Below, in pieces: positions 6,232-21,058 of a stretch of DNA of 64,000 bases (the first letter of the stretch is position 1; the number at the start of each line of letters is the position of its first letter). Source of the DNA: Candidatus Latescibacterota bacterium (GTDB taxonomy: Bacteria; Latescibacterota; UBA2968); contig OZ220741.1 of the NCBI GenBank assembly GCA_965116885.1, forward strand, positions 3,840,001 to 3,904,000. Reading direction: 5' to 3'. A program made the position numbers and the translations under genes. Below the pieces are notes generated by a model, which worked only from the letters and a program-made list of their open reading frames with translations, searched no databases and had not been told where the DNA came from.

Positions 6232-7179
6232 ATGATGGATAACGTGCGCGTTGGTGTGATTGGATGTGGTGGCCGGGGGAGAGGACATATCCGGTCTTTG
6301 AATGAGTTTGAAGATGTGCATCTCTCAGCGGTTTGCGATCCGGTTGTGGATATCCGCGAGTCCGTGTGTGAAGAGTACGGGATTGAGGGGCAATACGGCG
6401 ATGTTTCCGCATTGCTCGAAGGCGAGGCTCTGGATGCGGTTTTTGTCGCGCCGCCTGCACACTTGAATGCCGCGCTTGCATTGCCGTGTCTGGAGGCTGG
6501 CGTCCATACCTTTTTGGAGAAACCTCCTGGTTTGAGCTTGAAAGAGACCGAGGCGCTAAAAGCTGCGTCGGACGAAACGGGCGCGAAGGCCATGGTGGGA
6601 TGGAATCGGCGATTTCATCCGATTATTGTCGAGGCGCGCAATCTGGTGCTGGATCGTGGTCCTGTGACGCAATTGGTGGGGGAGTTCCACAAGAGTATTA
6701 CGGATTTGGGGAATTCGGGTAAGTTTGCCGAGGTGCTGATGGATTGTATGCTTTTTGAGACGCCGATTCACGCGATTGATACGGTCCGCTTTTTGGCGGA
6801 TGCCGATGTTTCCGAGGTTCACAGTGTGGTGCAGCGGTCTATGTCCGGCTATCGGGATGTACACGCGGCGCTCGTCGCGTTTGAAAATGGCGTTGTCGCG
6901 CAGCTTATTCACAATTATACGACCAATGCCAGGCTGGAGCGTTATGAGATTCACGGGCACGAGATTTCGGCTTATCTGGAGGGCGTGTCGCGCGGAGAGG
7001 TTTTTTGCGATGGCGAGAAAAGAGGATTGAGCGGGGATGGATCGGGAACAGACGAACAGAACCGATTTTTTATCGATTGTGTGAAAGAAGATCGCCCGGT
7101 CGCACTCCCCGCGGCAAATTTGGATGAAGCGATTAAGACGATGGAACTGGCCGAGGCGATTATGGCGGGGACGCGATAG
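6232..7179 (+). CDS. Gfo/Idh/MocA family oxidoreductase
   Basis: VGVIGCGGRG, FLEKPP, VGWNRRF motifs. Confidence 0.9.
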   Translation: MMDNVRVGVIGCGGRGRGHIRSLNEFEDVHLSAVCDPVVDIRESVCEEYGIEGQYGDVSALLEGEALDAVFVAPPAHLNAALALPCLEAGVHTFLEKPPGLSLKETEALKAASDETGAKAMVGWNRRFHPIIVEARNLVLDRGPVTQLVGEFHKSITDLGNSGKFAEVLMDCMLFETPIHAIDTVRFLADADVSEVHSVVQRSMSGYRDVHAALVAFENGVVAQLIHNYTTNARLERYEIHGHEISAYLEGVSRGEVFCDGEKRGLSGDGSGTDEQNRFFIDCVKEDRPVALPAANLDEAIKTMELAEAIMAGTR

Positions 7180-7180
7180 G

Positions 7181-7203
7181 GCGAATAGACGAATAGACGA
7201 ATC
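7181..7203. repeat. Partial copy of the (GACGAATA)n octamer element
   Basis: gcgaatagacgaatagacgaatc directly after the stop codon. Confidence 0.7.
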
Positions 7204-7232
7204 AGCGGAACGGGTGTTGTCCATTCTTTCTA

Positions 7233-7261
7233 TTGACAATATTTTCCGAATCCCGTAATTT
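7233..7261 (+). promoter_or_regulatory. Sigma70-type promoter of tRNA-Pro
   Basis: TTGACA-N17-TAATTT ending 15 bp upstream of the tRNA. Confidence 0.7.
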
Positions 7262-7275
7262 TCAGATAACAGAAA

Positions 7276-7352
7276 CGAGGTGTGGCTCAGTCCGGTAGAG
7301 CACCTGCTTTGGGAGCAGGGGGCCGGGGGTTCAAATCCCTCCACCTCGACCA
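7276..7352 (+). tRNA. tRNA-Pro(TGG)
   Basis: Acceptor CGAGGTG/CACCTCG, anticodon arm CCTGC-TTTGGGA-GCAGG, T-loop TTCAAAT, encoded CCA. Confidence 0.97.
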
Positions 7353-7355
7353 ATA

Positions 7356-7396
7356 ACAAGGGGTTGTGAGTTTTTCTCGCAACCTCTTGTCGTTTT
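7356..7396 (+). terminator. Hairpin terminator after tRNA-Pro
   Basis: ACAAGGGGTTGTGAG / CTCGCAACCTCTTGT stem followed by CGTTTT. Confidence 0.6.
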
Positions 7397-7404
7397 GAGG
7401 AATG

Positions 7405-7447
7405 AAAGAAAAAGCGCCTGTGCAAAATCGCACAAGCGCTTTCTTTT
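7405..7447 (-). terminator. Hairpin terminator, probably the original tRNA-Gln terminator displaced by the island
   Basis: AAAGCGCCTGTGC / GCACAAGCGCTTT stem with A/T runs on both sides, adjacent to the duplicated tRNA-Gln 3' end at 7448-7457. Confidence 0.6.
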
Positions 7448-7449
7448 TT

Positions 7450-7911
7450 GGTTGCCCGATAGATGCATTCACTGAACGTTTCTGTGTGTGGGATAACTTC
7501 CCCATCCACCACTTCCGCAGGAACAAGAAGCCCATAATCGCAATCGGACAGAAAAAGAAAAAACAATTGGTCACTCAAAAATTGCACCATCCCAATTATC
7601 TCAAAAGGGCCATGTATTATCACGAGCTTCTTGAAAAGGGCCACGTTCAATCTCAGAGGGCACTTGCGAAACATGTGGGAATTTCGCAACCCAAAATTCA
7701 CCTGATTCTACAGATGCTCAAACTGGATGAAGAAATTAAGGATTTTATCTTGAAGATAGATGACACAGACCCAGGGCTACGTTTCCTGACTGCCTATCGG
7801 TTGCAGCCGTTATTCCAGGTTAAGAGCAAGGAGAGACAAAGAAGGAAATTTTGGAAAATGATTGGGGAGCAATATCCAGGCCAAAGGGCCTGTGAGCAGG
7901 TTGGGCTATGA
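7450..7911 (+). CDS. HTH-containing C-terminal segment of a large serine recombinase, separated from its N-terminal part by integration; possible internal ATG at 7612
   Basis: LKRAMYYHELLEKGHVQSQRALAKHVGISQPKIHLILQMLKLDEEIKDFIL resembles the C-terminal HTH of island serine recombinases; the frame is open from the att core. Confidence 0.6.
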   Translation, partial: GCPIDAFTERFCVWDNFPIHHFRRNKKPIIAIGQKKKKQLVTQKLHHPNYLKRAMYYHELLEKGHVQSQRALAKHVGISQPKIHLILQMLKLDEEIKDFILKIDDTDPGLRFLTAYRLQPLFQVKSKERQRRKFWKMIGEQYPGQRACEQVGL

Positions 7912-7945
7912 ATTGATGGCTGAATAAAATAGATTGATCTTTTTC

Positions 7946-7990
7946 AAATGGGCGATATATTGTCTTTATTGGATGATATATCGCCCATTT
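7946..7990. repeat. Perfect 15-bp inverted repeat with 15-nt loop
   Basis: AAATGGGCGATATAT ... ATATATCGCCCATTT. Confidence 0.85.
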
Positions 7991-8088
7991 TATTTCTACA
8001 AAAATAGATGAGAGAAATGACATGTTTCATTGACAAGAGTTGCGGCCACAACTGCGGACTACCTCGTGCTGTATGTGAATCGCGATAT

Positions 8089-8149
8089 GGATGGTACAGG
8101 ATGATTGGGATGAACCTTCTACATTATCCACGAAAGCGGAGTAACTCCA
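8089..8149 (+). mobile_element. Partial mini-element (right end), IS3-like terminus family
   Basis: Ends TCCACGAAAGCGGAGTAACTCCA; the preceding ~40 bp are homologous to 9757-9806. Confidence 0.7.
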
Positions 8150-8180
8150 AAGTTTCATCTTAACTCGCTTATCGCATACC

Positions 8181-8264
8181 TTGTGCCGATAGCTTACGCA
8201 AAATTGCACCAAACACAGGCTTGAACCTAGGCCCTAAATACCCCACCAAAACGGGGTAACTCCA
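8181..8264 (+). mobile_element. Partial mini-element (right end), IS3-like terminus family
   Basis: Ends CCCACCAAAACGGGGTAACTCCA; the preceding ~60 bp are homologous to 16017-16077. Confidence 0.75.
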
Positions 8265-8478
8265 GCAGCACCAGTGCTCCGAGCACAATGTGGAGATCTT
8301 TACTGGGGCGCCCAAAGTCTTTGCTGAAATGGGGTGCCAGTTCCCCAACAGGTAGCTCCGAAAGCAGATACTCTCGGAAGACGCCAGCCCAGGAATGATC
8401 AAGGAGTTGCTTGCGTTTGGCCCCCAGGCTGTATCCAGAAATCCGGTGGGGACGCCGAATCGCGGTCTCGTAAGGTAA
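8265..8478 (+). pseudogene. Possible GC-richer gene fragment truncated by the mini-element
   Basis: Reading frame begins at the repeat end, has one TAG at 8353-8355 and ends TAA at 8476-8478; no recognised family. Confidence 0.25.
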
Positions 8479-8675
8479 GCATAAACGAAAGATAGCTCAC
8501 CTTACCCTTCGTGACAATCTCTGACTTTTTGCCGTCCCGTCAAATGTCGTGGATGATCCAGACGCATCAACTCATAAAATCATTACGGTTCTAGCTCATT
8601 GGACTTGACCATGATTTAAAATCTACAGAATTTATAGTTGAACAAAATGAATTTACACTCTAAAGGAGGTATAAC

Positions 8676-9077
8676 ATGGCTAACATGGCCCCATTTTTCC
8701 AAGAATTTTATTCTCAACATCTTGAAGAGTATCTGGGCGGCCAAGATGGTGATACGATAAATATAGTTAATGAAGCTATTGACTATGCAGTAGATCGTTT
8801 GGAAAACCGAAAAGTGCTTCGTTCAGATGCACGGCTGTTCCTAACAATTAACCTGCACGAAATTGTCGCGATACCTTTATCTCAACAGAATTCTCCAACG
8901 AGATTGACTGCTGATATTGTAGGGGAACTCAGAGAAGATACATACAGAATCCTTCAGGCTGCTTCGTTACGCGCAGGAAATAGAGAGGAATTGGCAGCGT
9001 CACACATAGTATGGGGTTTAGCATTTGTTCTAGACGATTTAAATTTAAAGAATTGGAGATTTTGGGACCCCATATAA
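8676..9077 (+). CDS. Hypothetical all-helical protein, possible histone-like fold
   Basis: Strong AAAGGAGGT RBS; 133 aa; segments resemble archaeal histone alpha2/L2/alpha3 (fold call speculative). Confidence 0.75.
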   Translation: MANMAPFFQEFYSQHLEEYLGGQDGDTINIVNEAIDYAVDRLENRKVLRSDARLFLTINLHEIVAIPLSQQNSPTRLTADIVGELREDTYRILQAASLRAGNREELAASHIVWGLAFVLDDLNLKNWRFWDPI

Positions 9078-9149
9078 GAGCCATAGGAATAAGTTATGCC
9101 CCGCGATATAAACGATTAAATTTAGAGGCTTAGAGGCTTTGAGACTGCA

Positions 9150-9653
9150 ATGAATGATAAAGATACTATAAGACTTGAAATATGGAAGATGCTCTTCTCG
9201 GTCGCAATTGGCTTAATTGTAGCCTCAACAACTTTTATTGTATATGCATTCAAAAAACCGTCTCTTGGTCCAGCCTTCTGGATATTGTTCGGGATTGGCA
9301 TGGCGGCCCTTTTTATGAGTTGCATTTTGGGCAGTAAAGGGGCATCGCGTATCCCAAATCCAGGCAATTTATTCAATTTACAGGCGTTGTGTTGTGCGGC
9401 CGGATTCTTTCTTCTTGCTATCAGCTTTATCTTTTTGGCTAAACCGACAGAAAACAACACTGTAATTTCAATTATCGGGCTACCAAAAGACTCAGAGCAA
9501 GCTGGCCACATTGTCCAGATACTAGACATAGAGAAATTCTATGAGATCATTACAAGGCTCGAAGCTGTGGAGCAAGATCTGGAAGATTTGCAGAAAAAGT
9601 TCTCGAAAAAAGAAGTAGTGTTGCCTGATACAGCTACTGTATCAGGGCATTGA
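9150..9653 (+). CDS. Hypothetical membrane protein (3 TM helices plus C-terminal coiled coil)
   Basis: Three hydrophobic stretches, then the heptad-like EIITRLEAVEQDLEDLQKK. Confidence 0.7.
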   Translation: MNDKDTIRLEIWKMLFSVAIGLIVASTTFIVYAFKKPSLGPAFWILFGIGMAALFMSCILGSKGASRIPNPGNLFNLQALCCAAGFFLLAISFIFLAKPTENNTVISIIGLPKDSEQAGHIVQILDIEKFYEIITRLEAVEQDLEDLQKKFSKKEVVLPDTATVSGH

Positions 9654-9699
9654 TCTATCGGATAGTCTTGATATTATGCTCTGTCGTAGCGATTTTGCT

Positions 9700-9954
9700 T
9701 GGACTTACCCCGTTTTGGTGTATAACACTATCAATCGTCCATCACCTATGAAAAACGGATGGCAAAGGTTGAGGGGGTTGAAATTTCTACACTATCCACC
9801 AAAGCGATGCTGTTGCCGAATTCTGAATTCTGTCTTGATGCAACTAAACATATAGGGCTTACAGAGCCTGAATTCAGGCCACAAGCAACCGTTTTTCCAA
9901 CCGCAGACTCCCCTCAACCAATTCGGCAACAATATCTAAAACGGGGTAACTTCA
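9700..9954 (+). mobile_element. Fused tandem of two mini-elements with IS3-like termini
   Basis: Left end TGGACTTACCCCGTTTTGGTG (9700), internal partial end TCCACCAAAGCG (9795-9806), right end AAAACGGGGTAACTTCA (9954). Confidence 0.8.
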
Positions 9955-10026
9955 TGATTGTATAGAGTACTAAGAGGCAGGTTACAAGTAATAGGAGATA
10001 ACCACAACAAAGTAAGGAGAAATCAG

Positions 10027-10674
10027 ATGCCAAGTTTTGAAATAAACCTTAAGTGTTTTGAATTTCCTCAGAATTTGAAAGATGAATACGCAAACTTTAG
10101 ATTTGCAGTTGAATTACGATTTTTCAATGCAAGCGGTAAACTTGTCACAAAGGAGACTGTAATACCGAGTTTGGAAACTTTTTGGGAATGTGACACAGGT
10201 GAACAAGACGCACAGAATTACGTACGTGCAACCAATGACGATGGGAAATCCATCAACAAATTTGATATGAATAAAATTGGTGTGTGGGACAGCTTAATCT
10301 TTCATATACCTGACATAAAAAGGCTTCATTCTATTAAATTTACTGTCTTTGACGTAAATCGAGAAGACATATGGAATAAGGCAGAAGGCTTATTAGGTAA
10401 AACCGTTGGAACCGCATTTGATGTAGTTACTGGTTCAGTTTTTAAGAAATTGCCATCTGCTTTATCTTCAATTGTTAAGTCAGACGAAGAAGTTATGAGT
10501 GATTTAGAGTCTGCCTTAATAAAGAAGATCACAGGAGGCGATGGTGACAAGATTCTATTTAGAAAATCAAAAGCATTAGATGAAATAAACTCTGAAGATA
10601 ATTTAACATTAACTGGTAAAGGTAAATATGGAGATTACGCGATAGGTATTGAAGTGAAGGAATATCCCGAGTGA
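10027..10674 (+). CDS. Hypothetical protein, possible C2-like beta sandwich with a helical insertion
   Basis: AAGGAGA RBS; WDSLIFHI...SIKFTVFDVNRED pattern recalls C2 domains (speculative). Confidence 0.7.
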   Translation: MPSFEINLKCFEFPQNLKDEYANFRFAVELRFFNASGKLVTKETVIPSLETFWECDTGEQDAQNYVRATNDDGKSINKFDMNKIGVWDSLIFHIPDIKRLHSIKFTVFDVNREDIWNKAEGLLGKTVGTAFDVVTGSVFKKLPSALSSIVKSDEEVMSDLESALIKKITGGDGDKILFRKSKALDEINSEDNLTLTGKGKYGDYAIGIEVKEYPE

Positions 10675-10690
10675 GGGTAAGCTTCACAAC

Positions 10691-10843
10691 TGGAGTTACC
10701 CCGCCCCATATTGTCCAAGAGGGATCTGCGGTTAAAAAGATAGCTGTTTGTGGCCTGATTTCAGGCTCTACAAGCCCTATGTTTAGTTGCATCGAGAACA
10801 GTATTCGGAATTCGGCAACAGCATCCAAAGCGGGGTAACTCCA
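10691..10843 (-). mobile_element. Complete 153-bp MITE-like element
   Basis: Perfect 14-bp terminal inverted repeats TGGAGTTACCCCGC / GCGGGGTAACTCCA; body is an inverted homolog of 9806-9954. Confidence 0.85.
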
Positions 10844-10997
10844 GAGAGACAAAGAAGGAAATTAAGGAAACGTCAATTTCTTGACAGTGGCGCAGAGATT
10901 TTTTCTGGCAATGATACAGTTGAAACGTATGAGGCACGCCTTTCCAATCCTGTGCTAAACGTCCAGGCAAAAATCGTCCGATTATCGGAGAACTAAT

Positions 10998-11735
10998 GTG
11001 TTAACCCTTAAAAGAAACATTAATGTATTGATTGACTATGACAACGTATCACATATTGACCCCCAGAAAGGATTGAATCACGTAGTTAAGTCGATTTTGG
11101 AAAAGCTCCCTAAAGGCATGTTACCTCACGGCACATATATTGCAGTTCGTCTTTATGGTGGCTGGTATAGATCAAGTCAATTGTCGCGACGTGCCCAAGA
11201 CCTAAGCATCCAAATCAGTCGTCACTACCCGGGTACTCTCTCTTTAGATACCGCCAATATGCGCCGTGTGTTCGTCTTCGTGGAGTTGGCTCGGAGCCTT
11301 TTAGTTGATCCTTCACAGGATATTTTAAACACATATAGAGTGAGGGGTGTACCTAGCAACCTGCGCCCTAAGGCATTTCCGTTCCAAGCTTGTACTCAAA
11401 CTCAAAACGCTCTGTGTCCACTCGCTGGTGCTCACACACTCCTTCAAACCGGCACATGCCCTAATTCCTCATGTGGGGTAAAAATCGCTGATGTAATTAC
11501 TCGACATGAACAGAAGCTAGTTGACACGATGCTTACGGCCGATTTGATTCACGTTGCATCTTCGAGCGCATCGGACATTGTCGTGGTTTCCAATGATGAT
11601 GACCTTTGGCCGGGAATTCGTACAGCTATATCTCTAGGAGCTTTTGTTCATCACATTCATCCTCAAAAGGGGCGTAGCACACCTACTTACTACTCCTCAA
11701 CAGTAAAAAAAAATTATTCTCAATATTCTTTTTAA
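10998..11735 (+). CDS. NYN domain (LabA/DUF88, PIN-like) ribonuclease with a Cys-rich insertion
   Basis: VLIDYDNV, EQKLVDTMLTADL, VVVSNDDDLWP acidic motifs; CTQTQNALC...CPNSSC insertion. Confidence 0.8.
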   Translation: MLTLKRNINVLIDYDNVSHIDPQKGLNHVVKSILEKLPKGMLPHGTYIAVRLYGGWYRSSQLSRRAQDLSIQISRHYPGTLSLDTANMRRVFVFVELARSLLVDPSQDILNTYRVRGVPSNLRPKAFPFQACTQTQNALCPLAGAHTLLQTGTCPNSSCGVKIADVITRHEQKLVDTMLTADLIHVASSSASDIVVVSNDDDLWPGIRTAISLGAFVHHIHPQKGRSTPTYYSSTVKKNYSQYSF

Positions 11736-11747
11736 GGCGGCGATTTT

Positions 11748-14006
11748 ATGAATATAGATGATCTAAAAAAAATTCTGATTGCCTTCGCTGATAGTGAAGC
11801 AGATTTAGAGATGGTTGGTAATGTGTTGGTATTTCAGATTAGAGACGAGATCATAGAAGTGTCTGTCGAACAACATAAAGGTAATCTGTTTATTACCGAA
11901 AACGGAGAAAGAAACAGTGCGTATTCCTGGTTGATAAACCGTGTAGCGAGAATTCCACAACTCGCGGATAGATTACTAGATAATGTTCCTTTCGAGCCAC
12001 ATTTTATATCACCTTCTGGAATGCTACTAGATCAAATTGATGCCAATCCAGAGGACATAGAAAAGAAAGTTGAGGATGTTGCTAACCAAATACCAGATCT
12101 TTTATCTCCCCAAACAGTAGGAACGTCGACGGTTCTCTATTTAACCTCCGATGCGGGTGAGGGGAAGACCACACTCATCAATCGGATAGCGCGAAATCAA
12201 GCACAACTTTACAAGGACCAGAAGACGGACTGGTTACTGATTCCAATCAGCCTTGGCGGACGTTCCTTCTTGACATTCGATGATATTGTAGTTGCAGAGC
12301 TCGTAAACAGGTTACGCTTCCAGTTTTTTTATTATAACGCATTCTTGGAACTAGTGAAACTGGGGGTACTGGTTCCCGCTTTCGATGGCTTTGAAGAGAT
12401 GTTCGTTGAAGGATCATCAGGAGAGGCGTTATCAGCATTGGGGAACCTGATGAATTCTCTCGATTCATCCGGAACAGCTCTAATTGCCGCAAGAAAGGCA
12501 TACTTTGAGTATAGGAACTTCGCTACCCAAGCTAGACTGTTTGATGCTATTCGAGATAGATCAGTTTCTTTTGCTAATATTAAGCTCAATAGGTGGGATC
12601 GAAAACGTTTTCTTAGTTATGCGGAGAGAAGAAACCTTTCAGATAGAGAAACGATATACCATAAAGTTCGTACACGATTAAAACCTGATCATCCTTTGTT
12701 GACCCGAGCGGTCTTGGTAAAACGGCTAGTGGAGGAGGCACAAGATGGAAATGTTGATACTCTACTTGACCGTCTCGGGACTACTCCTGAAGACTACTTC
12801 TTTCAGTTTGTTAATACGCTTGTCGAACGAGAATCTCGCGAAAAGTGGATAGATCGTTCTGGTACACCCCATCAATCTCTGCTGACAACTGAAGAACACC
12901 ATGCGCTACTAGCACTAGTGGCAAAGGAGATGTGGATATCCTCAAGCGAAGTACTCAAAGGAGACTATTTAGATCTGATTGGAGAGTTATTCGCTAGTGA
13001 GATCGGAAAACCAACAGTGATTTTACGTCAAATTGTCAATCGTATCAGGCAGCACTCATTAATTGTTTCTGAGAATGAGGAGTCGTATGCATTTGACCAT
13101 GAAGATTTTCGTAAATTTTATCTCGGGGAGGCATTAGGTACTACGTTGCTAGCAAATGATGATAGGGACATAATTGGGTTTCTGGAAAAGGGGTCTTTGC
13201 CACAGCAAACCTGTGATGCGGCACTATATATGGTAAAGAGGAATGCTGGCGATCTTGGTAAAGTCCTTCGGATTCTCCAGTCGTTGGTCAATTCAAGTGC
13301 TCCCCCATCTTACGTTGTGGAGAATGCGGCATCCATGGTTATAAGATTGCTTGAGTTGCTTACCGGTGATAAGGAAGTTGTCATTAAAGAATTTACGTTT
13401 GCTAGTGATGCCCTTAAGGACCGGAGATTTGGTGAAGTTACATTTGAAGGCTGTCTCTTTCAAGAGACATCTCTCGAGAACACGCATATCAGTAGATGTC
13501 AATTTAGACGGTGTACGATATATCAGTTAGAAATTCCGAGTGACTTTCGGACGGAAGGCACAATAATCGAAGATACTGAGATTTTAGGTATAACTCGTCC
13601 TGGCGAATTGCGTGGCATATATGATCCCGAAAGGATTTGCGAAGAGCTTACTTCGGTAGGATTTGAAGTAAAGAGTATTGAGAACCACGTGACGGTACAA
13701 CAACCAGTATCTGAGGCAGATGAAGATACCCTTCTTGCGGAGCGCGCGCTCAGGGCGTTTATGAGGGCAACGCAAATCAATGAGGGCGTATTCCGACAGA
13801 AGTTTGGTAGAGATGCTAACCGATTCATGGAAATAATTTTGCCGAAGATGATCGGCAAAGAAATTCTTCAGGAGGTTCCATACAGGGGGGGCGGGGCGCA
13901 ACGACGCTTTGGAATATGTGTTCCTATGAGTAATATTGAAGCAGCGGTACCGACGACTTTGGGGTCATTAGATGAGTTTTTGTCATCGGTAAAGCATGGA
14001 GCATAA
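11748..14006 (+). CDS. NACHT/STAND-like NTPase with a pentapeptide-like repeat region
   Basis: Walker A SDAGEGKTT, Walker B LVPAFDGFEE, HPLL, winged-helix FDHEDFRKFYLG, beta-helix-like VTFEGCLFQETSLENTHISRCQFRRCTI. Confidence 0.8.
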   Translation: MNIDDLKKILIAFADSEADLEMVGNVLVFQIRDEIIEVSVEQHKGNLFITENGERNSAYSWLINRVARIPQLADRLLDNVPFEPHFISPSGMLLDQIDANPEDIEKKVEDVANQIPDLLSPQTVGTSTVLYLTSDAGEGKTTLINRIARNQAQLYKDQKTDWLLIPISLGGRSFLTFDDIVVAELVNRLRFQFFYYNAFLELVKLGVLVPAFDGFEEMFVEGSSGEALSALGNLMNSLDSSGTALIAARKAYFEYRNFATQARLFDAIRDRSVSFANIKLNRWDRKRFLSYAERRNLSDRETIYHKVRTRLKPDHPLLTRAVLVKRLVEEAQDGNVDTLLDRLGTTPEDYFFQFVNTLVERESREKWIDRSGTPHQSLLTTEEHHALLALVAKEMWISSSEVLKGDYLDLIGELFASEIGKPTVILRQIVNRIRQHSLIVSENEESYAFDHEDFRKFYLGEALGTTLLANDDRDIIGFLEKGSLPQQTCDAALYMVKRNAGDLGKVLRILQSLVNSSAPPSYVVENAASMVIRLLELLTGDKEVVIKEFTFASDALKDRRFGEVTFEGCLFQETSLENTHISRCQFRRCTIYQLEIPSDFRTEGTIIEDTEILGITRPGELRGIYDPERICEELTSVGFEVKSIENHVTVQQPVSEADEDTLLAERALRAFMRATQINEGVFRQKFGRDANRFMEIILPKMIGKEILQEVPYRGGGAQRRFGICVPMSNIEAAVPTTLGSLDEFLSSVKHGA

Positions 14007-14076
14007 TAACAATGGTCTTTTACAATCAATACGGCGGACAATTTGTGTAAGCCGTTAATGAAAAATTTAGGCAAAA

Positions 14077-14146
14077 TGGAGTTATGGAGGTATCCCGTTT
14101 TGGTGGATCATATCATAAATCACCCATCACTTATGAAAAACTGATG
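14077..14146 (+). mobile_element. Partial mini-element (left end), IS3-like terminus family
   Basis: TGGAGTTA followed by TGGAGGTATCCCGTTTTGGTGGA; the next ~40 bp are homologous to 9723-9761. Confidence 0.75.
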
Positions 14147-14181
14147 TTAGTTTTTCGTCTATGGAGAGGAGAGATAAGAGT

Positions 14182-15945
14182 ATGCCTAAATTGATTACTG
14201 ATAGCCAAGATGAGCAAACACTTGAAGAGTTATTTAGGGATGCAGATCAAATTCATATCCCTATCTTCCAAAGATCTTATATCTGGAAGCAAAAGCAATT
14301 AGATGAATTACTGGGAGATATTCGATTAATTAGATCTGAAGTGGAGGAATCTCAATTTCTTGGTGCAATTGTAGCTTATGAGAGGCCACGCGACACCCAA
14401 ATTGTGGGCAGATTGAGAGCATTGGCTGTTGTTGATGGACAGCAACGGCTTCTTACACTTTATATTTTTGTTATGTGCTTAGTTGAATGTGTTGCAGGTA
14501 TCGATAAAGAGGAGGGGCTAGAGATAGTTCGCGAATTTCTCCTCCTTCCGACTCGGCGAGGGTTAGATATAAATACGCGAGTGATTCCTGCATTTTCAGA
14601 TAGAAGTCAATTCAGAGTACTTTGGGATCGCCTTAACAGTCCAGACGTCCTTCAAGGTCATTTCGCCCCCCCCCCAAACCCTCCACCTCCAAGCGGTGAG
14701 GCTGCTGGCGCACTCGTTAAACAGTATAATCGAATACTCAGATTTTTACGTAGCTCATTGCCAGAGGAAAAAAATAAAAGAATAGAATTTCTTCGCGAGA
14801 TCCTTGATATAATTACACGCCGATTGACCTTTGTTCATTTGAAACTAAACGATGCCTCTTCAGCGACCAAAATTTTTGAGAGGTTAAATTTCCGAGGTGT
14901 TAGGGTTGGGATAGTAGACCTTGTGAGAAATGAGATATTTTCTGGGACCGCAGATGATCCCACTGAAGCCCAGAGAATTTTTGATCATGTATGGCGGCCT
15001 TTCGAGACAGAATTTGAGGGAAGATCAGAGGCGTTTTTCTTTCCATATTGCCTTGTTCAAAACAGCAATATTAAAAAGTCAGAATTGTTTTCACAACTCC
15101 GAGAAACGTGGAAATCGCTAAGTCCTGAAGAGATGGTGGAACATATGAAGCCATTTCAAGGGCCCTTTATGAGCATAGACAGCACTGGTTATTACTCTGG
15201 GTGTTCCGAAATTTCGATGCGCTTAGACCGCCTTGTCAGAATGCGAAGGCCCTCATCTGTTTATCCTTATGTAATGTCCATGCTACACGCAAGAGATAAT
15301 GAAGAGATCAATGATGATCAATGTATTGATATGCTTGATGCACTTGAAACCTTTTTAGTAAGAAGGGCAATTGTTGGATTTGAACCAACTGGTCTGCATG
15401 CTCTATTCAAAGGACTCTGGGTACAACTCCCCGAACATAATTCGACAGGGTTCGTATCTATTGTTACCGAAAAACCTACGATTCAGTGGCCAAGTGATAA
15501 CGATTTGATCGAGGCAATTGAAAACCGCCCATTAGCAAGAACGCATATTTGCAATTATCTTCTTGTTGAATACGATAAAGGCCTAAAAGGTGATGACCCC
15601 ATTACTACTCCAACGATTGAGCATATATTGCCTGTGTCGTATGATACTAATAGTGAATGGTCTGATTTATTTTCTAGAGATCAACATAAAAAATTGAAAG
15701 ATACTTGGGCAAATTTAATTCCGTTATCTTCGCCCATGAACTCCTCGCTACAGGCAGATCCATATTCACAGAAACGTCCGAGATATGGAAACGAATCAAT
15801 GTTTATCACTCCGCGAGATATAGCTGACAGGTGGGAAGATTGGACGCCATATAGCATTGAGGAAAGAGCACAAATCCTTACCGCCTGGGCAATCGCACGC
15901 TGGCCACATACTCTACCTAATTCAGCAGACAACGTCGAATCTTAG
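14182..15945 (+). CDS. DUF262-DUF1524 protein (GmrSD-like type IV restriction endonuclease family)
   Basis: IPIFQRSYIW, VVDGQQRL, IFERLNFRG (DUF262); TIEHILP...WANLIPLSSPMNSSL (HNH-like DUF1524). Confidence 0.9.
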   Translation: MPKLITDSQDEQTLEELFRDADQIHIPIFQRSYIWKQKQLDELLGDIRLIRSEVEESQFLGAIVAYERPRDTQIVGRLRALAVVDGQQRLLTLYIFVMCLVECVAGIDKEEGLEIVREFLLLPTRRGLDINTRVIPAFSDRSQFRVLWDRLNSPDVLQGHFAPPPNPPPPSGEAAGALVKQYNRILRFLRSSLPEEKNKRIEFLREILDIITRRLTFVHLKLNDASSATKIFERLNFRGVRVGIVDLVRNEIFSGTADDPTEAQRIFDHVWRPFETEFEGRSEAFFFPYCLVQNSNIKKSELFSQLRETWKSLSPEEMVEHMKPFQGPFMSIDSTGYYSGCSEISMRLDRLVRMRRPSSVYPYVMSMLHARDNEEINDDQCIDMLDALETFLVRRAIVGFEPTGLHALFKGLWVQLPEHNSTGFVSIVTEKPTIQWPSDNDLIEAIENRPLARTHICNYLLVEYDKGLKGDDPITTPTIEHILPVSYDTNSEWSDLFSRDQHKKLKDTWANLIPLSSPMNSSLQADPYSQKRPRYGNESMFITPRDIADRWEDWTPYSIEERAQILTAWAIARWPHTLPNSADNVES

Positions 15946-15948
15946 AAA

Positions 15949-16100
15949 TGGACTTGCCCCGTTTTGGTGGATAATTTATATAATCCTCATCGCAGACATT
16001 CTTCCATTGCCTACTATGCACCGATGGCCTGCGAAAAGCTGCATCAATCACAGGGTTGAAACACAAGCCCTACACTCTCCACCGAAGCGGGGTAACTCCA
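15949..16100 (+). mobile_element. Complete 152-bp MITE-like element
   Basis: Termini TGGACTTGCCCCGTTTTGGTGGA and TCCACCGAAGCGGGGTAACTCCA; starts 3 bp after the GmrSD-like stop codon. Confidence 0.85.
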
Positions 16101-16432
16101 TCGCTGGACGCAAGGTTGGTATCAAAACCATCGGTCAGAAAATTATCGACCTGGAAGACCAAAAAGAACAAATAGAACAGGAGATGATGGATAATGAATC
16201 AATTCTCGCGGAGCTAAAGCAAAAGGCCGTAAGTGTTGCTCAGATGGCGCAAAAACTTACGACCTTTGAGGAATTATTTGATGAAGCCACACCAGAGGAA
16301 CGGAAAGACCTGTTAAGGCTACATATCAACCACCTGATCTATACCCCTGATGCTATTCAACTGGCCTTGTTTGATTCTGCCAATGAAACGGACAGAATCA
16401 AAGTTCAGCGAGAAGATGTAGTTGGTTGCCCC
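16101..16432 (+). pseudogene. C-terminal coiled-coil remnant of a large serine recombinase reading into the att site
   Basis: IGQKIIDLEDQKEQIEQEM...FEELFDEATPEERKDLLRLHINHLIY pattern; no start or catalytic domain, cut at the MITE end; frame continues antisense through the tRNA to TAA at 16516. Confidence 0.7.
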
Positions 16433-16496
16433 TCAGGGATTCGAACCCCGATACCTGGAACCAAAATCCAGTGTCTTGCCATTAGACGAAGGGGCA
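16423..16496 (-). tRNA. tRNA-Gln(TTG)
   Basis: Acceptor TGCCCCT/AGGGGCA, anticodon arm CTGGA-TTTTGGT-TCCAG, TTCGAAT T-loop, CCA. Confidence 0.96.
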
Positions 16497-16515
16497 ATAC
16501 TGTGTCGCAGGGCTA

Positions 16516-16544
16516 AATATAAATTTTTAGCCGATTACTGGCAA
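16516..16544 (-). promoter_or_regulatory. Sigma70-type promoter of tRNA-Gln
   Basis: TTGCCA-N17-TATATT on the minus strand. Confidence 0.65.
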
Positions 16545-16600
16545 CTTTCTTTTTAGAAATTAGCGATCGGTGGTCAGACAGAATCCTTCTCGGGCGCAAA

Positions 16601-16626
16601 GGGACGGCACGGGGGCCGTCCCCTAC
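16601..16626 (-). repeat. GTAG-type REP element
   Basis: GTAG-GGGACGGC-CCCCGT-GCCGTCCC hairpin. Confidence 0.75.
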
Positions 16627-16660
16627 AACACTATGCCGCGATGACGGTTGTTCCCACTTC

Positions 16661-18340
16661 TCACTTCCCACTTCTCATCCTCGCCCAGGTGTCGCGCAGG
16701 GTAATCGTTCGGTTTAATACGAGTTTTTCATCTGAAGAATCTGTATCGATGCAGAAATAGCCCAGTCGTTCGAATTGGACCACGCTGCCAACTTCTGCCC
16801 CTTTCATGCTCGGCTCGACATAACATACGGGGCGCACTTCCAATGAGTCGGGATTTAAGTTGTCTGTGAAGTCTTTTCCTTCTTCTGTTCGGATTGGGTT
16901 TTCCGTCATGAATAGCCGATCAAATAACCGTACTTCGGCCTTTAGAGCGTGTTTTGCCGATACCCAGTGCAATGTCGAGCGCACCCGGCGTTTATCGGGC
17001 GTTGTGCCGCCGCGGCTTTCGGGGTCCCAGGTACAGCGGAGTTCGATTATGTTGCCGTCGTCGTCTTTTATTGCTTCCTGGCAGGTGATATAACACGCCG
17101 CGCGCAATCGCACCTCGCGTCCGGGCGCAAGGCGGTAAAATTTGCGCGGGGGATCTTCCATAAAATCTTCCCGCTCAATGTACAACTCCCGCGAAAAAGG
17201 CACGGGGCGCGTGCCGGCATCGGGATCTTCGGGATTGGTCATCGCTTCAAATGTCTCTTCTTCATCTTCGGGATAGTTTTCAATGACCACTTTTAAGGGG
17301 TCAATCACGCCCATTACGCGGGGCGCGACTTTGTTCAGGTGCTCGCGAATATAGAATTCAAACAAATCTATTTCCGCGGTTGTATCCCGCCGGTTCATTC
17401 CCACGCGCCAGATGAAATTTTTAATGGCTTGCGGCGGTATCCCGCGCCGTCTCATGCCCGAGAGCGTGGGCATGCGCGGGTCGTCCCATCCGTTTACGAG
17501 ATTGCGTTCGACCAGTTGGGTCAACATGCGCTTGCTGGTCAATGTGTAGGTGATATTCAACCGCGCAAATTCAATTTGCTGCGAGGGAAAGATCTCTAAT
17601 TGCCGGATGTACCAATCGTACAGAGGGCGGTGTTCTGCAAATTCGATGCTGCACAGCGAGTGCGTGACTTGCTCTATGGCATCGGATTGCCCGTGTGCCC
17701 AATCGTACATTGGATAAATACACCATTTGTCGCCCGTGCGATGGTGTGATGTGTGTTTGATCCGATACATGACGGGATCGCGCATGTTCATATTTGGCGA
17801 TGCCATATCGGCTTTTGCGCGCAATGTACACGCGCCATCGGGAAAGTCTCCATTTTTCATTCGCTCAAATAGGTCGAGATTTTCCGACGCGGTGCGATCC
17901 CGGTAGGGGCTGTTTTTCCCCGGCTCTGTTACTGTGCCGCGGTAGTCGCGTATTTCCTGTGGACTCAGGTCGCAAACATAGGCTTTTCCCTGTTGTATGA
18001 GCTCCACGGCATAATCGTAGAGTTGGTCAAAATAGTCAGAGGCAAAGTACAATCCGTCGCCCCAATCAAAGCCCATCCATTTCAAATCTTCCTGGATAGA
18101 TTCGACGTATTCTGTGTCTTCTCGGTCCGGGTTGGTGTCGTCAAACCGGAGATTGCACTGTCCGTCAAATTCCTCGGCGAGGCCAAAGTCCAGACAAAAA
18201 GCCTTGGCATGGCCGATGTGCAGATAGCCATTTGGCTCTGGGGGAAAGCGCGTTACGATTTTTTTGTGTTTGCCATTTTTTACGTCTTCGCGAACAATTT
18301 CTCGGATAAAATCCGTTGGTGTGTCTTCGGTTGTTGCCAT
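16661..18340 (-). CDS. glnS: Glutamine--tRNA ligase
   Basis: [32 protein letters not shown]. Confidence 0.97.
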
Positions 18341-18378
18341 TTTAAGACCTTTTGGGTTTTAGTTGTTGGTCCGCCACT

Positions 18379-18404
18379 GGGCGACCACAGGGGGTCGCCC
18401 CTAC
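18379..18404 (-). repeat. GTAG-type REP element
   Basis: GTAG-GGGCGACC-CCCTGT-GGTCGCCC. Confidence 0.75.
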
Positions 18405-18410
18405 GGGGTA

Positions 18411-20144
18411 TTACCCATCACACTTCATACTTTTTACTTCATTCCTCACACGTTCTACTACCTGATCCAGAGGCACATCTGTGCGGTCATTTTCATGTCG
18501 CAATTTCATCTCTATCTGTCCATTTGCCAGGCCGCGCGATCCCACGGTTAATCGTATTGGGATGCCGATTAAATCCGCATCGTTGAATTTTACGCCTGCG
18601 CGTTCATCGCGGTCGTCGAGCAAGACATCCAGGCCCGCGGCTTTTAGTTGCCCGTACAATTTTTCGGCGGCTTCCAGTTCTCCTGCGGGTTTTCTGCCCG
18701 TCAGAACTACGATTTGCACCTCAAAGGGCGCGACCGATATCGGCCAGATAATGCCGTGGTCGTCGTGATGGGCTTCGATAATACACGCCAATAACCGGCC
18801 CACGCCGATGCCATAACACCCCATGAAGAGGGGCTGCATTTTGCCGTTTTCATCCAGGACCTTCGCCCCCATGCTGTCGCTGTATTTTGTGCCGAGCTTG
18901 AAGATATTGCCCACTTCAATGCCGCGCGTGCTGTCGAGCGGGGTTTCGCATTCTGGACAGGGCATGCCTTTTTCTACGGCGACGAGGTCGGTGACGATGT
19001 CGGGATCAAAATCGCGTCCGGTATTGACGTTTAAGTAGTGATATCCTTCCTCATTCGCACCCGATACAAAATTTGTCCCTTTTGCGATGGCTTTATCGAC
19101 GACTACAATGGCATTTTTCACAGCCATTGGCGATGCATATCCCGGGACTGCGCCGACTGCGGTGATTTCCTCATCTGTTGCCGGACGCAATGCTTGCGCC
19201 TTTACCACGTTGGCGAGTTTGGTTTCGTTTAATTCGCGGTCGCCGCGCAATACCGCAAAAATAAATTTTTCTTCGCCATTTATTGTGCCGATTAAAAATA
19301 CGGCTTTGGCTGTTTTGCTCTGCGGTACGTTCAAAAACGACGCGACTTCTTCGATGGTTTTGCAATTGGGGGTCGCCACTTTTTGCAGGGGTTTTTCACT
19401 TTCCGCTTCAATGGCTTCCCGTTTATATGTCGCTACCTGTCGATTGGCCTGATAACCGCATGTATCGCATAAGAGCAAGGTGTCTTCACCACCCGGGTTT
19501 AAGTACATAAATTCATGCGCTTCTGTTCCGCCCATCATTCCCGGATCGCTTTCTACTGAGATGACGTGGTCACCCAATCCCGCGCGCTCAAATATTCGCT
19601 GATATGCCTCGTACATGCGCGGGTAATACGCATCTAAACCCGCCTGGTCGATGTGAAAGCTGTACCCGTCTTTCATCGTAAATTCGCGTACGCGAATCAA
19701 TCCGCCACGGCTGCGCGGTTCGTCGCGGAATTTGGTCTGAAGCTGAAACGCGCTCAGTGGCAATTGTCGGTAGCTCTGTACCATGTGACGCGCCAGGTCG
19801 GTCACGGCTTCTTCGTGCGTCATTGCCAAACACATGTCGCGGTCTGCGCGGTCTTTCATGCGCATCATTTCCTGGCCCACATCGTCCCACCGACCACTCT
19901 CGCGCCAGATTTCCGCGGGTTGTACTACGGGCATCGAAATTTCAAAGCAATCTGCGCGTTCCATTTCTTCGCGCAATATCTGTTCGATGTTCCGCTTCAC
20001 GCGCAATCCCAGCGGCAAGAAGCTAAAGATTCCCGATGCGAGAGAGCGAATGAGTCCCGCGCGCAAAGCCAACTGGTGACTAATGGCTTCTGCATCTGCG
20101 GGCACTTCGCGCAGGGTTTGTGTCAATAATTGAGAATAATGCAT
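18411..20144 (-). CDS. proS: Proline--tRNA ligase (bacterial type with editing insertion)
   Basis: KFRDEPRSRGGLIRVREF, GCYGIGVGR, KFNDADLIG. Confidence 0.97.
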   Translation of the reverse strand: MHYSQLLTQTLREVPADAEAISHQLALRAGLIRSLASGIFSFLPLGLRVKRNIEQILREEMERADCFEISMPVVQPAEIWRESGRWDDVGQEMMRMKDRADRDMCLAMTHEEAVTDLARHMVQSYRQLPLSAFQLQTKFRDEPRSRGGLIRVREFTMKDGYSFHIDQAGLDAYYPRMYEAYQRIFERAGLGDHVISVESDPGMMGGTEAHEFMYLNPGGEDTLLLCDTCGYQANRQVATYKREAIEAESEKPLQKVATPNCKTIEEVASFLNVPQSKTAKAVFLIGTINGEEKFIFAVLRGDRELNETKLANVVKAQALRPATDEEITAVGAVPGYASPMAVKNAIVVVDKAIAKGTNFVSGANEEGYHYLNVNTGRDFDPDIVTDLVAVEKGMPCPECETPLDSTRGIEVGNIFKLGTKYSDSMGAKVLDENGKMQPLFMGCYGIGVGRLLACIIEAHHDDHGIIWPISVAPFEVQIVVLTGRKPAGELEAAEKLYGQLKAAGLDVLLDDRDERAGVKFNDADLIGIPIRLTVGSRGLANGQIEMKLRHENDRTDVPLDQVVERVRNEVKSMKCDG

Positions 20145-20157
20145 GCAATAACCTCTC

Positions 20158-20655
20158 TTAAACCGTTTCGCCCACTGCCAGTGCAGCCCTTTGGATTACG
20201 CGGTCTCCAATATAATAACCATTATTTTTCATAATTCTCAGAATGGGTACCACTTCTCGAATCAACATTTTTCTTTTTGCCTGAACGAGAATACCCGCTG
20301 AACCAATAATTTCCAAATTCAGGTCTTCTGCTGCCCTTCTCGCCCGATGATCGTCCAGTAACAAACGCGAATTGGGCAATTGCTTTGCCAGTTGAATTAC
20401 TTCAGTTTCTCCAGGCCCCAGTGCAATGGAAATCAATTCTGTTGTTTGTCCCAAGGTCCGATGTTCAAGCCATGAAGCACGGTCTAAAAAGTCACGACCG
20501 GAGGCATTTTGGCCTCCGGCCAGAATTTCAGTTATTACTGCGGATGGTGCAATAACGCGAGAATACAATCTGGGCAATAGGTCGAGTCGGTTCACGCCCG
20601 CCAATGCAATGAGTGGGCTGGAATCTGCGATCAGAAACACGTCATTTATAACCAA
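20158..20655 (-). CDS. DUF3368 PIN-domain toxin (start uncertain)
   Basis: IADSSPLIAL, LGPGETEVI, LLDDHRARRAA, GSAGIL. Confidence 0.85.
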   Translation of the reverse strand: MVINDVFLIADSSPLIALAGVNRLDLLPRLYSRVIAPSAVITEILAGGQNASGRDFLDRASWLEHRTLGQTTELISIALGPGETEVIQLAKQLPNSRLLLDDHRARRAAEDLNLEIIGSAGILVQAKRKMLIREVVPILRIMKNNGYYIGDRVIQRAALAVGETV

Positions 20656-20893
20656 ATTCTGTGTCGAGTTGATCATCATCCAGATCAACAACAGGGATGT
20701 TCAATGCACTGACCTTTGCAAGAAACTCGGGCTTTCTTAAACCGGATAGCTCTGCTGCTTTGCCAGCAGAAATCCGACGGAGCTCAAAGAATTTCAAAGC
20801 CAACAGAAAGCGCGCTTCCCGTTCAAATACTTCGGGTTCTTGTCCAGTGATCAAGAGCAGGTCTTCAGAATATGGGATATTCAATGTTTTCAT
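20642..20893 (-). CDS. UPF0175 family antitoxin
   Basis: ISAGKAAELSGL motif; overlaps the PIN gene. Confidence 0.85.
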   Translation of the reverse strand: MKTLNIPYSEDLLLITGQEPEVFEREARFLLALKFFELRRISAGKAAELSGLRKPEFLAKVSALNIPVVDLDDDQLDTEFGYK

Positions 20894-21058
20894 ATTTTAC
20901 CCCGTTAGAAAGGTCTTATAAAAATATAAACAAATATTAGGACAAGAGCGAAATATTGTGTCTAAGTAGATAAATTTCTAACCGGTAATTCTGCTGCTGA
21001 CCGTCGTACAAATTTACCACCACCTGAAATTGTGGACGATTTGGCATCACATAAAGTT

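Follow-up and report, generated by a model that had tools for sequence, protein, structure and literature searches.

A repeat-delimited gene array in a Latescibacterota genome as a probable nest of IS3-derived mini-elements

A regular alternation of repeats and accessory genes is found in a 64-kb stretch of a Candidatus Latescibacterota genome (contig OZ220741.1, positions 3,840,001 to 3,904,000; hereafter the window, which is the part of this genome that all statements on it cover). An initial annotation of the array had left two readings side by side: a hotspot of transposable elements of the miniature inverted-repeat type (MITEs) that causes adjacent deletions, or an undescribed, non-integron cassette system that accretes defence-type genes. 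The 23-nucleotide (nt) motif that delimits the modules is the end of an ordinary insertion sequence (IS) of the IS3 family. The array itself is, in all likelihood, a nest of IS3-derived MITEs and IS remnants in a decaying integrative island that has undergone deletions and recombination. The hotspot reading gained support from nested and truncated elements, from three element tips that abut gene stumps and from a synteny break that falls on a tip. The cassette system lost its ground, as the sites are transposon ends, no dedicated recombinase serves them, the cargo lies between the elements, and no module recurs in the at least 123 loci that carry the terminus.

The terminus motif and its parent element

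At six sites the window matches the 23-nt consensus with three or fewer mismatches. These sites are confined to positions 8054-16100, none was expected by chance, and 0 of 100 dinucleotide shuffles contained any match, which rules out a chance origin of the repeat. A 22-nt core with up to five mismatches recovered eight termini (8128-8149, 8243-8264, 9700-9721, 9933-9954, 10822-10843, 14085-14106, 15949-15970, and 16079-16100). Two more were recovered by other means: 10691-10704 as a perfect 14/15-nt inverted repeat with 10830-10844, and 9788-9806 as a partial right end in BLAST and repeat matches. All ten firm sites of the initial annotation are thus real, eight by the core scan and two by the inverted-repeat and BLAST matches. 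A possible relic that it had placed at 8600 was recovered by no motif, core or BLAST scan, and by eye only its first 8 nt are in common with the motif. As had been claimed, no copies lie beyond the island: the mini-elements and the full IS gave no significant BLAST match in the window outside 8040-16100, and a 14-nt core scan gave just noise there, at two to three mismatches. A known structured RNA was also considered as the identity of the repeats. This was ruled out by an Rfam scan of 7000-17000 (E up to 1), which returned two tRNAs, one sub-threshold trpB-motif match at 7355-7449, and nothing else.

The terminus was then written as a 21-nt IUPAC pattern, and exact matches were collected from a set of species-representative genomes. 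At least 123 stretches were found (loci labelled L001 onwards). Among the matches listed, at least 39 come from a single Latescibacterota chromosome, OZ252228.1, where they are spread over 0.67 to 7.73 Mb. The other matches listed are from further Latescibacterota, Acidobacteriota, Poribacteria, Planctomycetota, Gemmatimonadota, Chloroflexota, Actinomycetota, and several proteobacterial classes. At one locus (L074, 4001-5256), a 1256-bp element is bounded by the same terminus as in the window and carries both orfA and orfB. The orfA product matches HTH_Tnp_1 (40.9 bits). orfB overlaps orfA in the -1 frame, and its product matches rve (98.9 bits) as well as the NCBIfam IS3 transposase model (350 bits; cut-off 160). 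Terminus pairs that lie 1.25-1.37 kb apart were found in loci from Acidobacteriota, Delta- and Alphaproteobacteria, and Anaerolineaceae.

A transposase between matching ends, for which the initial annotation had proposed a search, is therefore present in related genomes as orfA/orfB elements. Its assignment of the termini to the IS3 family was borne out by these full-length 1256-bp elements, which have the same ends and an orfB that meets the NCBIfam IS3 model. A further resemblance to IS2 ends had been noted there; the match of orfB to the IS2 TnpB model is weak (E = 5.7e-5). The IS appears to have multiplied recently in OZ252228.1, where at least 25 distinct 1256-bp copies (L001-L004, L053, L055, L058, and others) are more than 99% identical.

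Anatomy and behaviour of the mini-elements

Three MITE families share the IS termini and are termed here E-type, type-C, and type-1. The most informative is element E (15949-16100, + strand), a complete MITE of 152 bp. It consists of the left 31 bp and the last 122 bp of the IS, and includes the last ~23 codons of orfB. Aligned to the full-length copies of L035, L052, and L104/L105, E matches their left ends with its positions 1-31 and their right ends with positions 31-152 (86-90% identity). Moreover, a tblastn search with orfB residues 253-281 gave a match at window positions 15967-16053, inside E. Judged by these alignments, E is a clean internal-deletion derivative of the IS. The full-length copy of L104/L105 sits in the genome of the closest relative, OZ253501.1, ~250 kb from the island of that genome.

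Element C (10691-10843, +) is a complete type-C MITE of 153 bp with perfect terminal inverted repeats of 14-15 nt. It folds into a long hairpin (-29.1 kcal/mol, z = -4.5), and the hairpin of the terminal repeats of E reaches z = -2.2. The lengths of these two complete units are those given in the initial annotation. For the interiors of type-C and type-1 no match to the IS was found, just the termini are shared. Units of both families are also present in other Latescibacterota loci (L119, L021, L020, L099, and L067).

The remaining copies are incomplete. A1 (8054-8149, +) belongs to type-1 and is degenerate: part of its interior is deleted, and its right tip is intact. Its right half aligns to B1 and to the type-1 copies of L099 and L067, and its left end is discernible only through alignment. 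Adjoining the tip of A1 is A2 (8150-8264, +), a 115-bp right-end fragment of the IS with the final orfB codons and the right terminus (79% identity to IS positions 1162-1256). B1 (9700-9806, +) is a type-1 MITE minus the last ~11 nt of its right terminus, with 79% identity to D over 62 nt and 80% to A1; a 118-bp copy at L020 1187-1304 served as the full-length type-1 reference in its alignment. Fused to B1 is B2 (9807-9954, +), a type-C MITE that is inverted relative to C and has lost its first ~18 nt. B2 is 84% identical to the reverse of C over 108 nt, and members of the same family are found at L119 356-515 and L021 430-569. Together B1 and B2 form a 255-bp composite with its tips facing outward. 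D (14077-14146, +) consists of a terminus tip of 8 nt and, after it, the left 62 nt of a type-1 MITE (92% identity to the L067 type-1 copy over 53 nt); the right half is gone.

The first 47 nt of A2 (8150-8196) were also found at L021 3879-3925 with 94% identity and the same left boundary, in unrelated flanks. On this comparison, solo right ends such as A2 may be a mobile or recurrently generated form, not random truncations.

By size these elements are MITEs: the complete units measure 152 and 153 bp and the others 62-115 bp, below the ~500 bp that bounds the class, and none has a transposase gene of its own. Their termini are those of an autonomous IS3-family element (the same 21-nt end on the 1256-bp orfA/orfB elements), and for E the derivation from the parent can be traced. 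A target duplication is what they lack. IS3-family elements move by copy-out/paste-in via a circle and normally leave a 3-bp duplication. As the initial annotation had stated, no such duplications are seen in the window, where 0 of 13 left-tip/right-tip pairings have 3, 4 or 5 flanking bases in common. A rule for the orientation of elements relative to genes did not emerge either: the type-1 copies are co-oriented with the genes, type-C lies both ways, and one L020 end is reversed.

In OZ252228.1, 25 distinct full-length copies (>99% identical) were present among the fetched loci, and six of them have a perfect 3-bp duplication (~0.4 expected). The other 19 lack it, as do all three full copies in other genomes. 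Bona fide full-length copies are thus usually without duplications too, and for this reason the missing duplications are no argument for a new mechanism. Direct repeats of MITEs have also been described to wane with age, in the available part of one account (PMC10969869). The same text describes MITEs as mostly intergenic or 3' of open reading frames (ORFs) and in 3' untranslated regions, as clustering, and as inserting into each other (PMC10969869).

Nesting is found in the parent as well. Of the 25 OZ252228.1 copies, four lie directly next to a piece of another one (L003, where the 3-bp duplication is clean, L053, L055, and L058). In L119 and in L021, type-C is inserted within a right end of the IS that is inverted. 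In L003, L055, and L058 the nested insertions lie ~97-100 bp from either tip of the other copy. The nesting and the missing duplications in OZ252228.1 hint at end-directed targeting and heavy recombination between copies. Targeting of sequences that resemble the element's own ends, as reportedly occurs in IS911, could explain the nesting and is taken here as a lead.

Strong target preference is on record for the IS3-family members IS1397 and ISKpn1, in the part of the source available (PMC1525189). In genomes related to that of the window, a conserved terminator-like hairpin module of ~75 nt was observed just downstream of tRNA genes (Gln, Asn, Pro, and Met) and also near the end of groEL (L067 3864-3975, L021 6855-6951, L119 230-298, L064 4846-4918, and L020 4121-4175). 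IS3 termini lie beside this module or within ~60 nt of it, in either orientation, in 5 of 21 Latescibacterota loci outside OZ252228.1 among the matches listed. The module may be a preferred target of the IS, as repetitive extragenic palindromes are for IS1397, or it may belong to a mobile unit; the window has no copy of it.

The island, its decay and the competing explanations

The DNA between a tRNA-Pro and a tRNA-Gln gene (~7353-16422) looks like foreign DNA, and its gene content suggests a decayed serine-recombinase island. tRNA-Pro(TGG) forms the left border (7276-7352, +; ARAGORN; Rfam tRNA 69.5 bits) and tRNA-Gln(TTG) the right one (16423-16496, -; ARAGORN, Rfam). Over 7001-16000 the GC content is 0.385-0.454; most of the 1-kb windows nearby, within the first 30 kb, have 0.49-0.57. 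The flanks contain genes for housekeeping and catabolism (among them GlnRS, ProRS, sulfatases, and ABC transporters), and none of 43 flanking ORFs matched a transposase or integrase family. At the left end of the island lies an ORF with a ParB-type helix-turn-helix (HTH) domain (7402-7911, +; Pfam HTH_ParB 29 bits, cut-off 22.6), whose true start is probably further downstream. It is followed by a terminator-like hairpin (7946-7990, +) with a 15-nt perfect inverted repeat and a 20-pair stem, then a T run.

At the right end is the C-terminal stump of a large serine recombinase (16103-16420, +), which corresponds to residues 410-546 of 546 when read to 16513; its frame continues through the antisense of tRNA-Gln. 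The stump has 39 homologs, 29 of them with PF00239, PF07508, and PF13408, and is 90% identical to residues 410-546 of the recombinase P0004. The catalytic domain is deleted in the window, and with its recombinase cut to the last quarter the island is now probably fixed in place. In another Latescibacterota genome a 230-amino-acid (aa) protein (P0038) joins a recombinase C-terminus to a ParB-like part that is 72% identical to the 7402-7911 product. The genes for the ParB-HTH protein and the recombinase thus have the appearance of opposite ends of a single integrative element.

In this family of ~546-aa large serine recombinases (P0001, P0004, P0029, and window 16103-16513), the reading frames pass through the neighbouring tRNA gene on its antisense strand (tRNA-Gln, tRNA-Asn, and at least one further tRNA). 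Insertion directly at tRNA 3' ends is suggested by this layout, a habit seen more typically in tyrosine integrases. Of the recombinase gene, just ~45 nt of the 3' end remain beside the tRNA in L067 and L021.

Three right tips, those of A2, C, and E, each adjoin a gene stump that lacks its other parts. The recombinase stump is cut off by the right tip of E. The one cut off by the right tip of A2 (8266-8427, -) belongs to an IS1182/IS5-like DDE transposase and covers residues 26-79 of 620. It has 75 homologs, most of them with PF05598, PF01609, and PF13751, and is 91% identical to residues 26-79 of P0046. The claim that the window has no transposase consequently holds for intact ones, none of which appeared in Pfam scans of the 43 flanking ORFs and 10 island ORFs or fragments, and fails for this remnant. 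Beginning exactly at the right tip of C is a 27-nt copy (10844-10870, +; 25/27, 93%) of 7831-7857 in the 3' part of the ParB-HTH ORF, which is read as the relic of a second ParB-HTH gene. This repeat could be what is left of a second island, integrated in tandem, that has lost its left-end gene through deletion, an idea for which the 27 nt and the fused protein P0038 are the grounds. The whole fragment right of C was also considered as the tail of the second ParB-HTH gene. This was rejected, as only the first 27 nt match and the remaining ~84 nt resemble a short HTH_Tnp_1-like protein. The latter segment (10868-10951, +) is a possible, weak relic of a different transposase orfA, in which 28 aa are 86% identical to P0040 (E = 1.2e-6 in a search of 1.84 billion proteins); the HTH_Tnp_1 match of P0040 itself is sub-threshold (21.8 bits, cut-off 24.1).

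Further evidence came from the closest relative locus, L067 in OZ253501.1, which was compared within the 4-kb flank of its terminus match; OZ253501.1 contributes three stretches among the matches listed, one of which is this same island. The right flank is 88.9% identical over 3797 nt (window 16401-20144), with synteny resuming at 16401. L067 also shares the last codons of the 752-aa NTPase gene and the following ~70 nt, and this homology ends exactly at a terminus tip (14076/14077). In place of D, the gene for the restriction enzyme GmrSD, E, and the recombinase stump, L067 has ~330 nt with degenerate right-tip-like motifs, then a 556-aa secreted dehydrogenase/cadherin/dockerin protein. A full type-1 MITE follows 12 nt past the stop of this gene, then a 324-aa Cache-domain protein. 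At the right end are an IS right-end remnant, the hairpin module, and the recombinase relic beside tRNA-Gln. The GmrSD gene has no match in L067. This island end was therefore rearranged in each lineage independently, and IS termini lie at or close to the breaks. In this comparison, of a kind that the initial annotation had proposed between strains, the cargo differs between related MITEs, with one break on a tip. For the 10 island proteins or fragments, no homolog beyond the MITE-encoded stretch was found in the at least 123 terminus-bearing loci.

Based on these features, the following history is proposed. An island would have been acquired horizontally. One of its ends would have held a ParB-type HTH gene and the other, against a tRNA, the gene of a large serine recombinase, with GmrSD, an NYN protein with a NACHT-like NTPase, and small unassigned ORFs as cargo. 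It would then have been invaded repeatedly by non-autonomous derivatives of a Latescibacterota IS3-family IS, namely the three MITE families and solo right-end fragments, and at least one other IS would also have inserted. MITE movement would have depended on a transposase acting in trans, encoded by a full-length copy at another place in the genome. Insertions would have landed in intergenic DNA just past genes, and into or beside one another. Recombination between copies, or transposase-driven adjacent deletion, would then have removed neighbouring DNA. Such deletions could have erased duplications, truncated elements, and taken away the larger part of two genes, that of the recombinase and that of another transposase. 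The outcome would be selected cargo genes separated by MITE debris, insertions having survived only between selected genes.

Several points weigh against this history. For the organism of the window, of which 64 kb were seen, a full-length source IS and dispersed MITE copies were not found, and all copies in the window sit in one 8-kb island. The elements may be more concentrated in such islands than expected of a random MITE. Accessory genes with MITE pieces at their flanks are seen again in L021, L020, and L067, which is also what a gene-shuffling role would produce; here the recurrence is explained by tolerance together with target preference. In L021 a MITE nest precedes a restriction-modification gene of Type ISP, whose stop has an element 16 nt past it, and in L020 a MITE is followed by a leucine-rich repeat protein gene with an IS end 29 nt past its stop. 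Moreover, no insertion in the window keeps a duplication, so that transposition of these particular copies is something we infer. Adjacent deletion is a known behaviour of IS elements, including the IS3 family.

Other explanations were considered as well. A doubtful possibility is that IS3-derived MITEs serve as portable boundaries of accessory-gene modules in Latescibacterota tRNA-adjacent islands, which would be swapped through transposase action on outer tips or through homologous recombination. The differing cargo between MITEs in 89%-identical flanks and the MITE-gene-MITE layouts of L020, L021, and L067 fit this possibility, without demonstrating it. If true, it would be a transposon-end counterpart of cassette exchange, enriched for defence genes. 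It is improbable that MITE-bounded composites are gene cassettes in their own right, mobilised in trans by an IS3 transposase or exchanged by homologous recombination at the MITEs. The units would then run, for example, from tip 14077 to tip 16100 around GmrSD and from 9700 to 10843 around a 215-aa ORF, and the island would accrete or swap genes like TIME-COMPs. Each cargo gene does lie within at least one of the 13 left-tip/right-tip spans, the different cargo of L067 between related MITEs agrees with an exchange, accessory genes with flanking MITE pieces occur again in L020 and L021, and gene-mobilising two-MITE composites are known for Tn3-derived elements, in the available text of one report (PMC13367494). 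However, none of the 13 spans has a 3-5-bp duplication, and at the smallest scale the cargo between a right tip and the next left tip is outside the elements. In addition, the absence of homologs at the at least 123 terminus-bearing loci extends to all ten island proteins or fragments, and several bounding elements are truncated and could no longer be cut out (D is without a right end, B1 without a tip, and A2 without a left end).

The mini-elements could instead have been co-opted as punctuation, that is, as terminators, insulators or mRNA-stabilising 3' structures kept by selection after stops, which is also improbable and slightly more so. Elements start 3-70 nt past stops in the window (and at 12, 16, and 29 nt in L067, L021, and L020), C and E form long terminal-repeat hairpins, and a MITE located mainly in 3' untranslated regions is on record in the available part of one source (PMC10969869). 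The truncated D, A2, and B1, however, cannot form a hairpin and yet persist, and a position close to stops would also follow from purifying selection that removes insertions from promoters and coding sequence. Promoter and terminator scans stayed at the level of shuffled sequences (23 versus 19.5 and 9 versus 7.8 expected), and no terminator site fell in an element. The regular spacing itself is weaker than it sounds. The gaps of 46, 16, 70, and 3 nt given in the initial annotation are correct as counted, but the gap of 70 runs to the extra 8-nt tip at 14077-14084, with the full left end at 14085. Since any intergenic element presents a TGGA... tip toward its upstream gene, the spacing shows only that the elements are nearer to the upstream stop than to the next start. 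Least of all, and very improbably, the repeats would be recombination sites of the island's serine recombinase, through which each module was captured. A large serine recombinase gene does belong to the island and the repeats do delimit modules, but the repeats are termini of IS3-family elements with their own DDE transposase, one repeat truncates the recombinase gene itself, and relatives of the recombinase adjoin tRNA genes (Gln, Asn), which points to tRNA-linked attachment sites instead.

A nest of MITEs and IS remnants can also be set against known systems. The mini-elements share their termini with IS3-family orfA/orfB elements, in which orfB lies in the -1 frame and 6 of 25 intact copies show a 3-bp duplication; the window differs in that it has no transposase of this IS, just derivatives of 62-153 bp. 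Similar to bacterial MITEs such as Correia, RUP, BOX/SPRITE clusters, QMITE2, and MITEAba12, they are small and non-coding, share inverted repeats with an IS, lie in intergenic positions or 3' of genes, cluster, nest, and have lost duplications, as far as the available part of the source describes them (PMC10969869). In contrast to these, three unrelated interiors are found under one IS3-type terminus, and E can be traced base by base to its parent IS. No IS3-derived MITE described for Latescibacterota was found in a single literature search, among whose ten listed results no paper named the taxon; this is weak evidence that these are undescribed. Accessory genes between MITE copies are also a feature of TIME-COMPs and integron mobilization units. 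Those derive from Tn3-family ends, according to the accessible text (PMC13367494), whereas the elements of the window derive from IS3; here the spans have no duplications, the copies at their bounds are in part truncated, and none of the units was found a second time in the at least 123 loci. The co-oriented genes, each followed by a repeated imperfect palindrome, recall integron arrays; unlike these, the window has no IntI-type integrase (10 island ORFs or fragments and 43 flanking ORFs) and no attI, the one recombinase found is the serine-recombinase stump, and its repeats are pairs of IS3 termini that form whole elements of 110-150 bp, not single attC sites. The low GC content between two tRNA genes, the integrase-type gene against a tRNA, and the type IV restriction cargo are those of a tRNA-adjacent defence island, with the difference that a large serine recombinase, truncated to its last quarter, takes the place of the usual tyrosine integrase.

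As it stands, the array is ordinary mobile-element debris, and its main value lies in annotation. An IS3-family clade that is spread over many phyla can be recognised by its terminus, and three MITE families are defined in the little-studied Latescibacterota. The elements would erode an integrative island and, through deletion of the recombinase, lock it in place. The locus also carries a warning, namely that a regular gene-plus-repeat layout can arise from MITEs that survive only between selected genes. Its importance would be greater if population data showed MITE-mediated exchange of defence genes between genomes.

Cargo genes and neighbouring features

As claimed in the initial annotation, the cargo is co-oriented, with all seven ORFs of 8676-15945 on the + strand. 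Three small ORFs have no Pfam, PADLOC or NCBIfam match: a 133-aa ORF (8676-9077, +), a 167-aa ORF with a hydrophobic N-terminal half (9150-9653, +), and the 215-aa ORF (10027-10674, +; 238 aa from a TTG at 9958). They are followed by a 245-aa NYN-domain protein (10998-11735, +; Pfam NYN 25.6 bits, cut-off 24.2) and a 752-aa P-loop NTPase with pentapeptide repeats (11748-14006, +). For the latter, Pentapeptide_4 falls below the cut-off, the match to HalA is weak, and the nearest Atlas clusters are labelled 'pentapeptide repeat / NACHT', so that a NACHT-like nature is a lead only. The last cargo gene encodes a 594-aa type IV restriction enzyme of the GmrSD type (DUF262/DUF1524; 14161-15945, +) with Pfam GmrSD_N at 93 bits, GmrSD_C at 64 bits, and matches to 33 PADLOC families. 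The description of the cargo as defence-type therefore holds for GmrSD, the one of eight island proteins with a PADLOC match, and perhaps for the one NACHT-like lead; the others have no PADLOC match.

The NYN gene and the 752-aa NTPase gene (10998-14006) form a pair without a PADLOC match and with a weak match to the HalA model, and the NTPase gene is also present in the relative's island. The two could make up a pair of defence genes of a kind not yet described. Ten consecutive C were observed at 14666-14675, in a Pro-rich coding stretch of the GmrSD ORF. This tract could slip and thereby switch the restriction gene on or off. Outside the island, a further 1-kb window of low GC content (0.45) was found at 20001-21000, just past ProRS. 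It holds a 177-aa ORF with a DUF3368 domain (20161-20691), and this patch may be a small toxin-antitoxin-like insertion.

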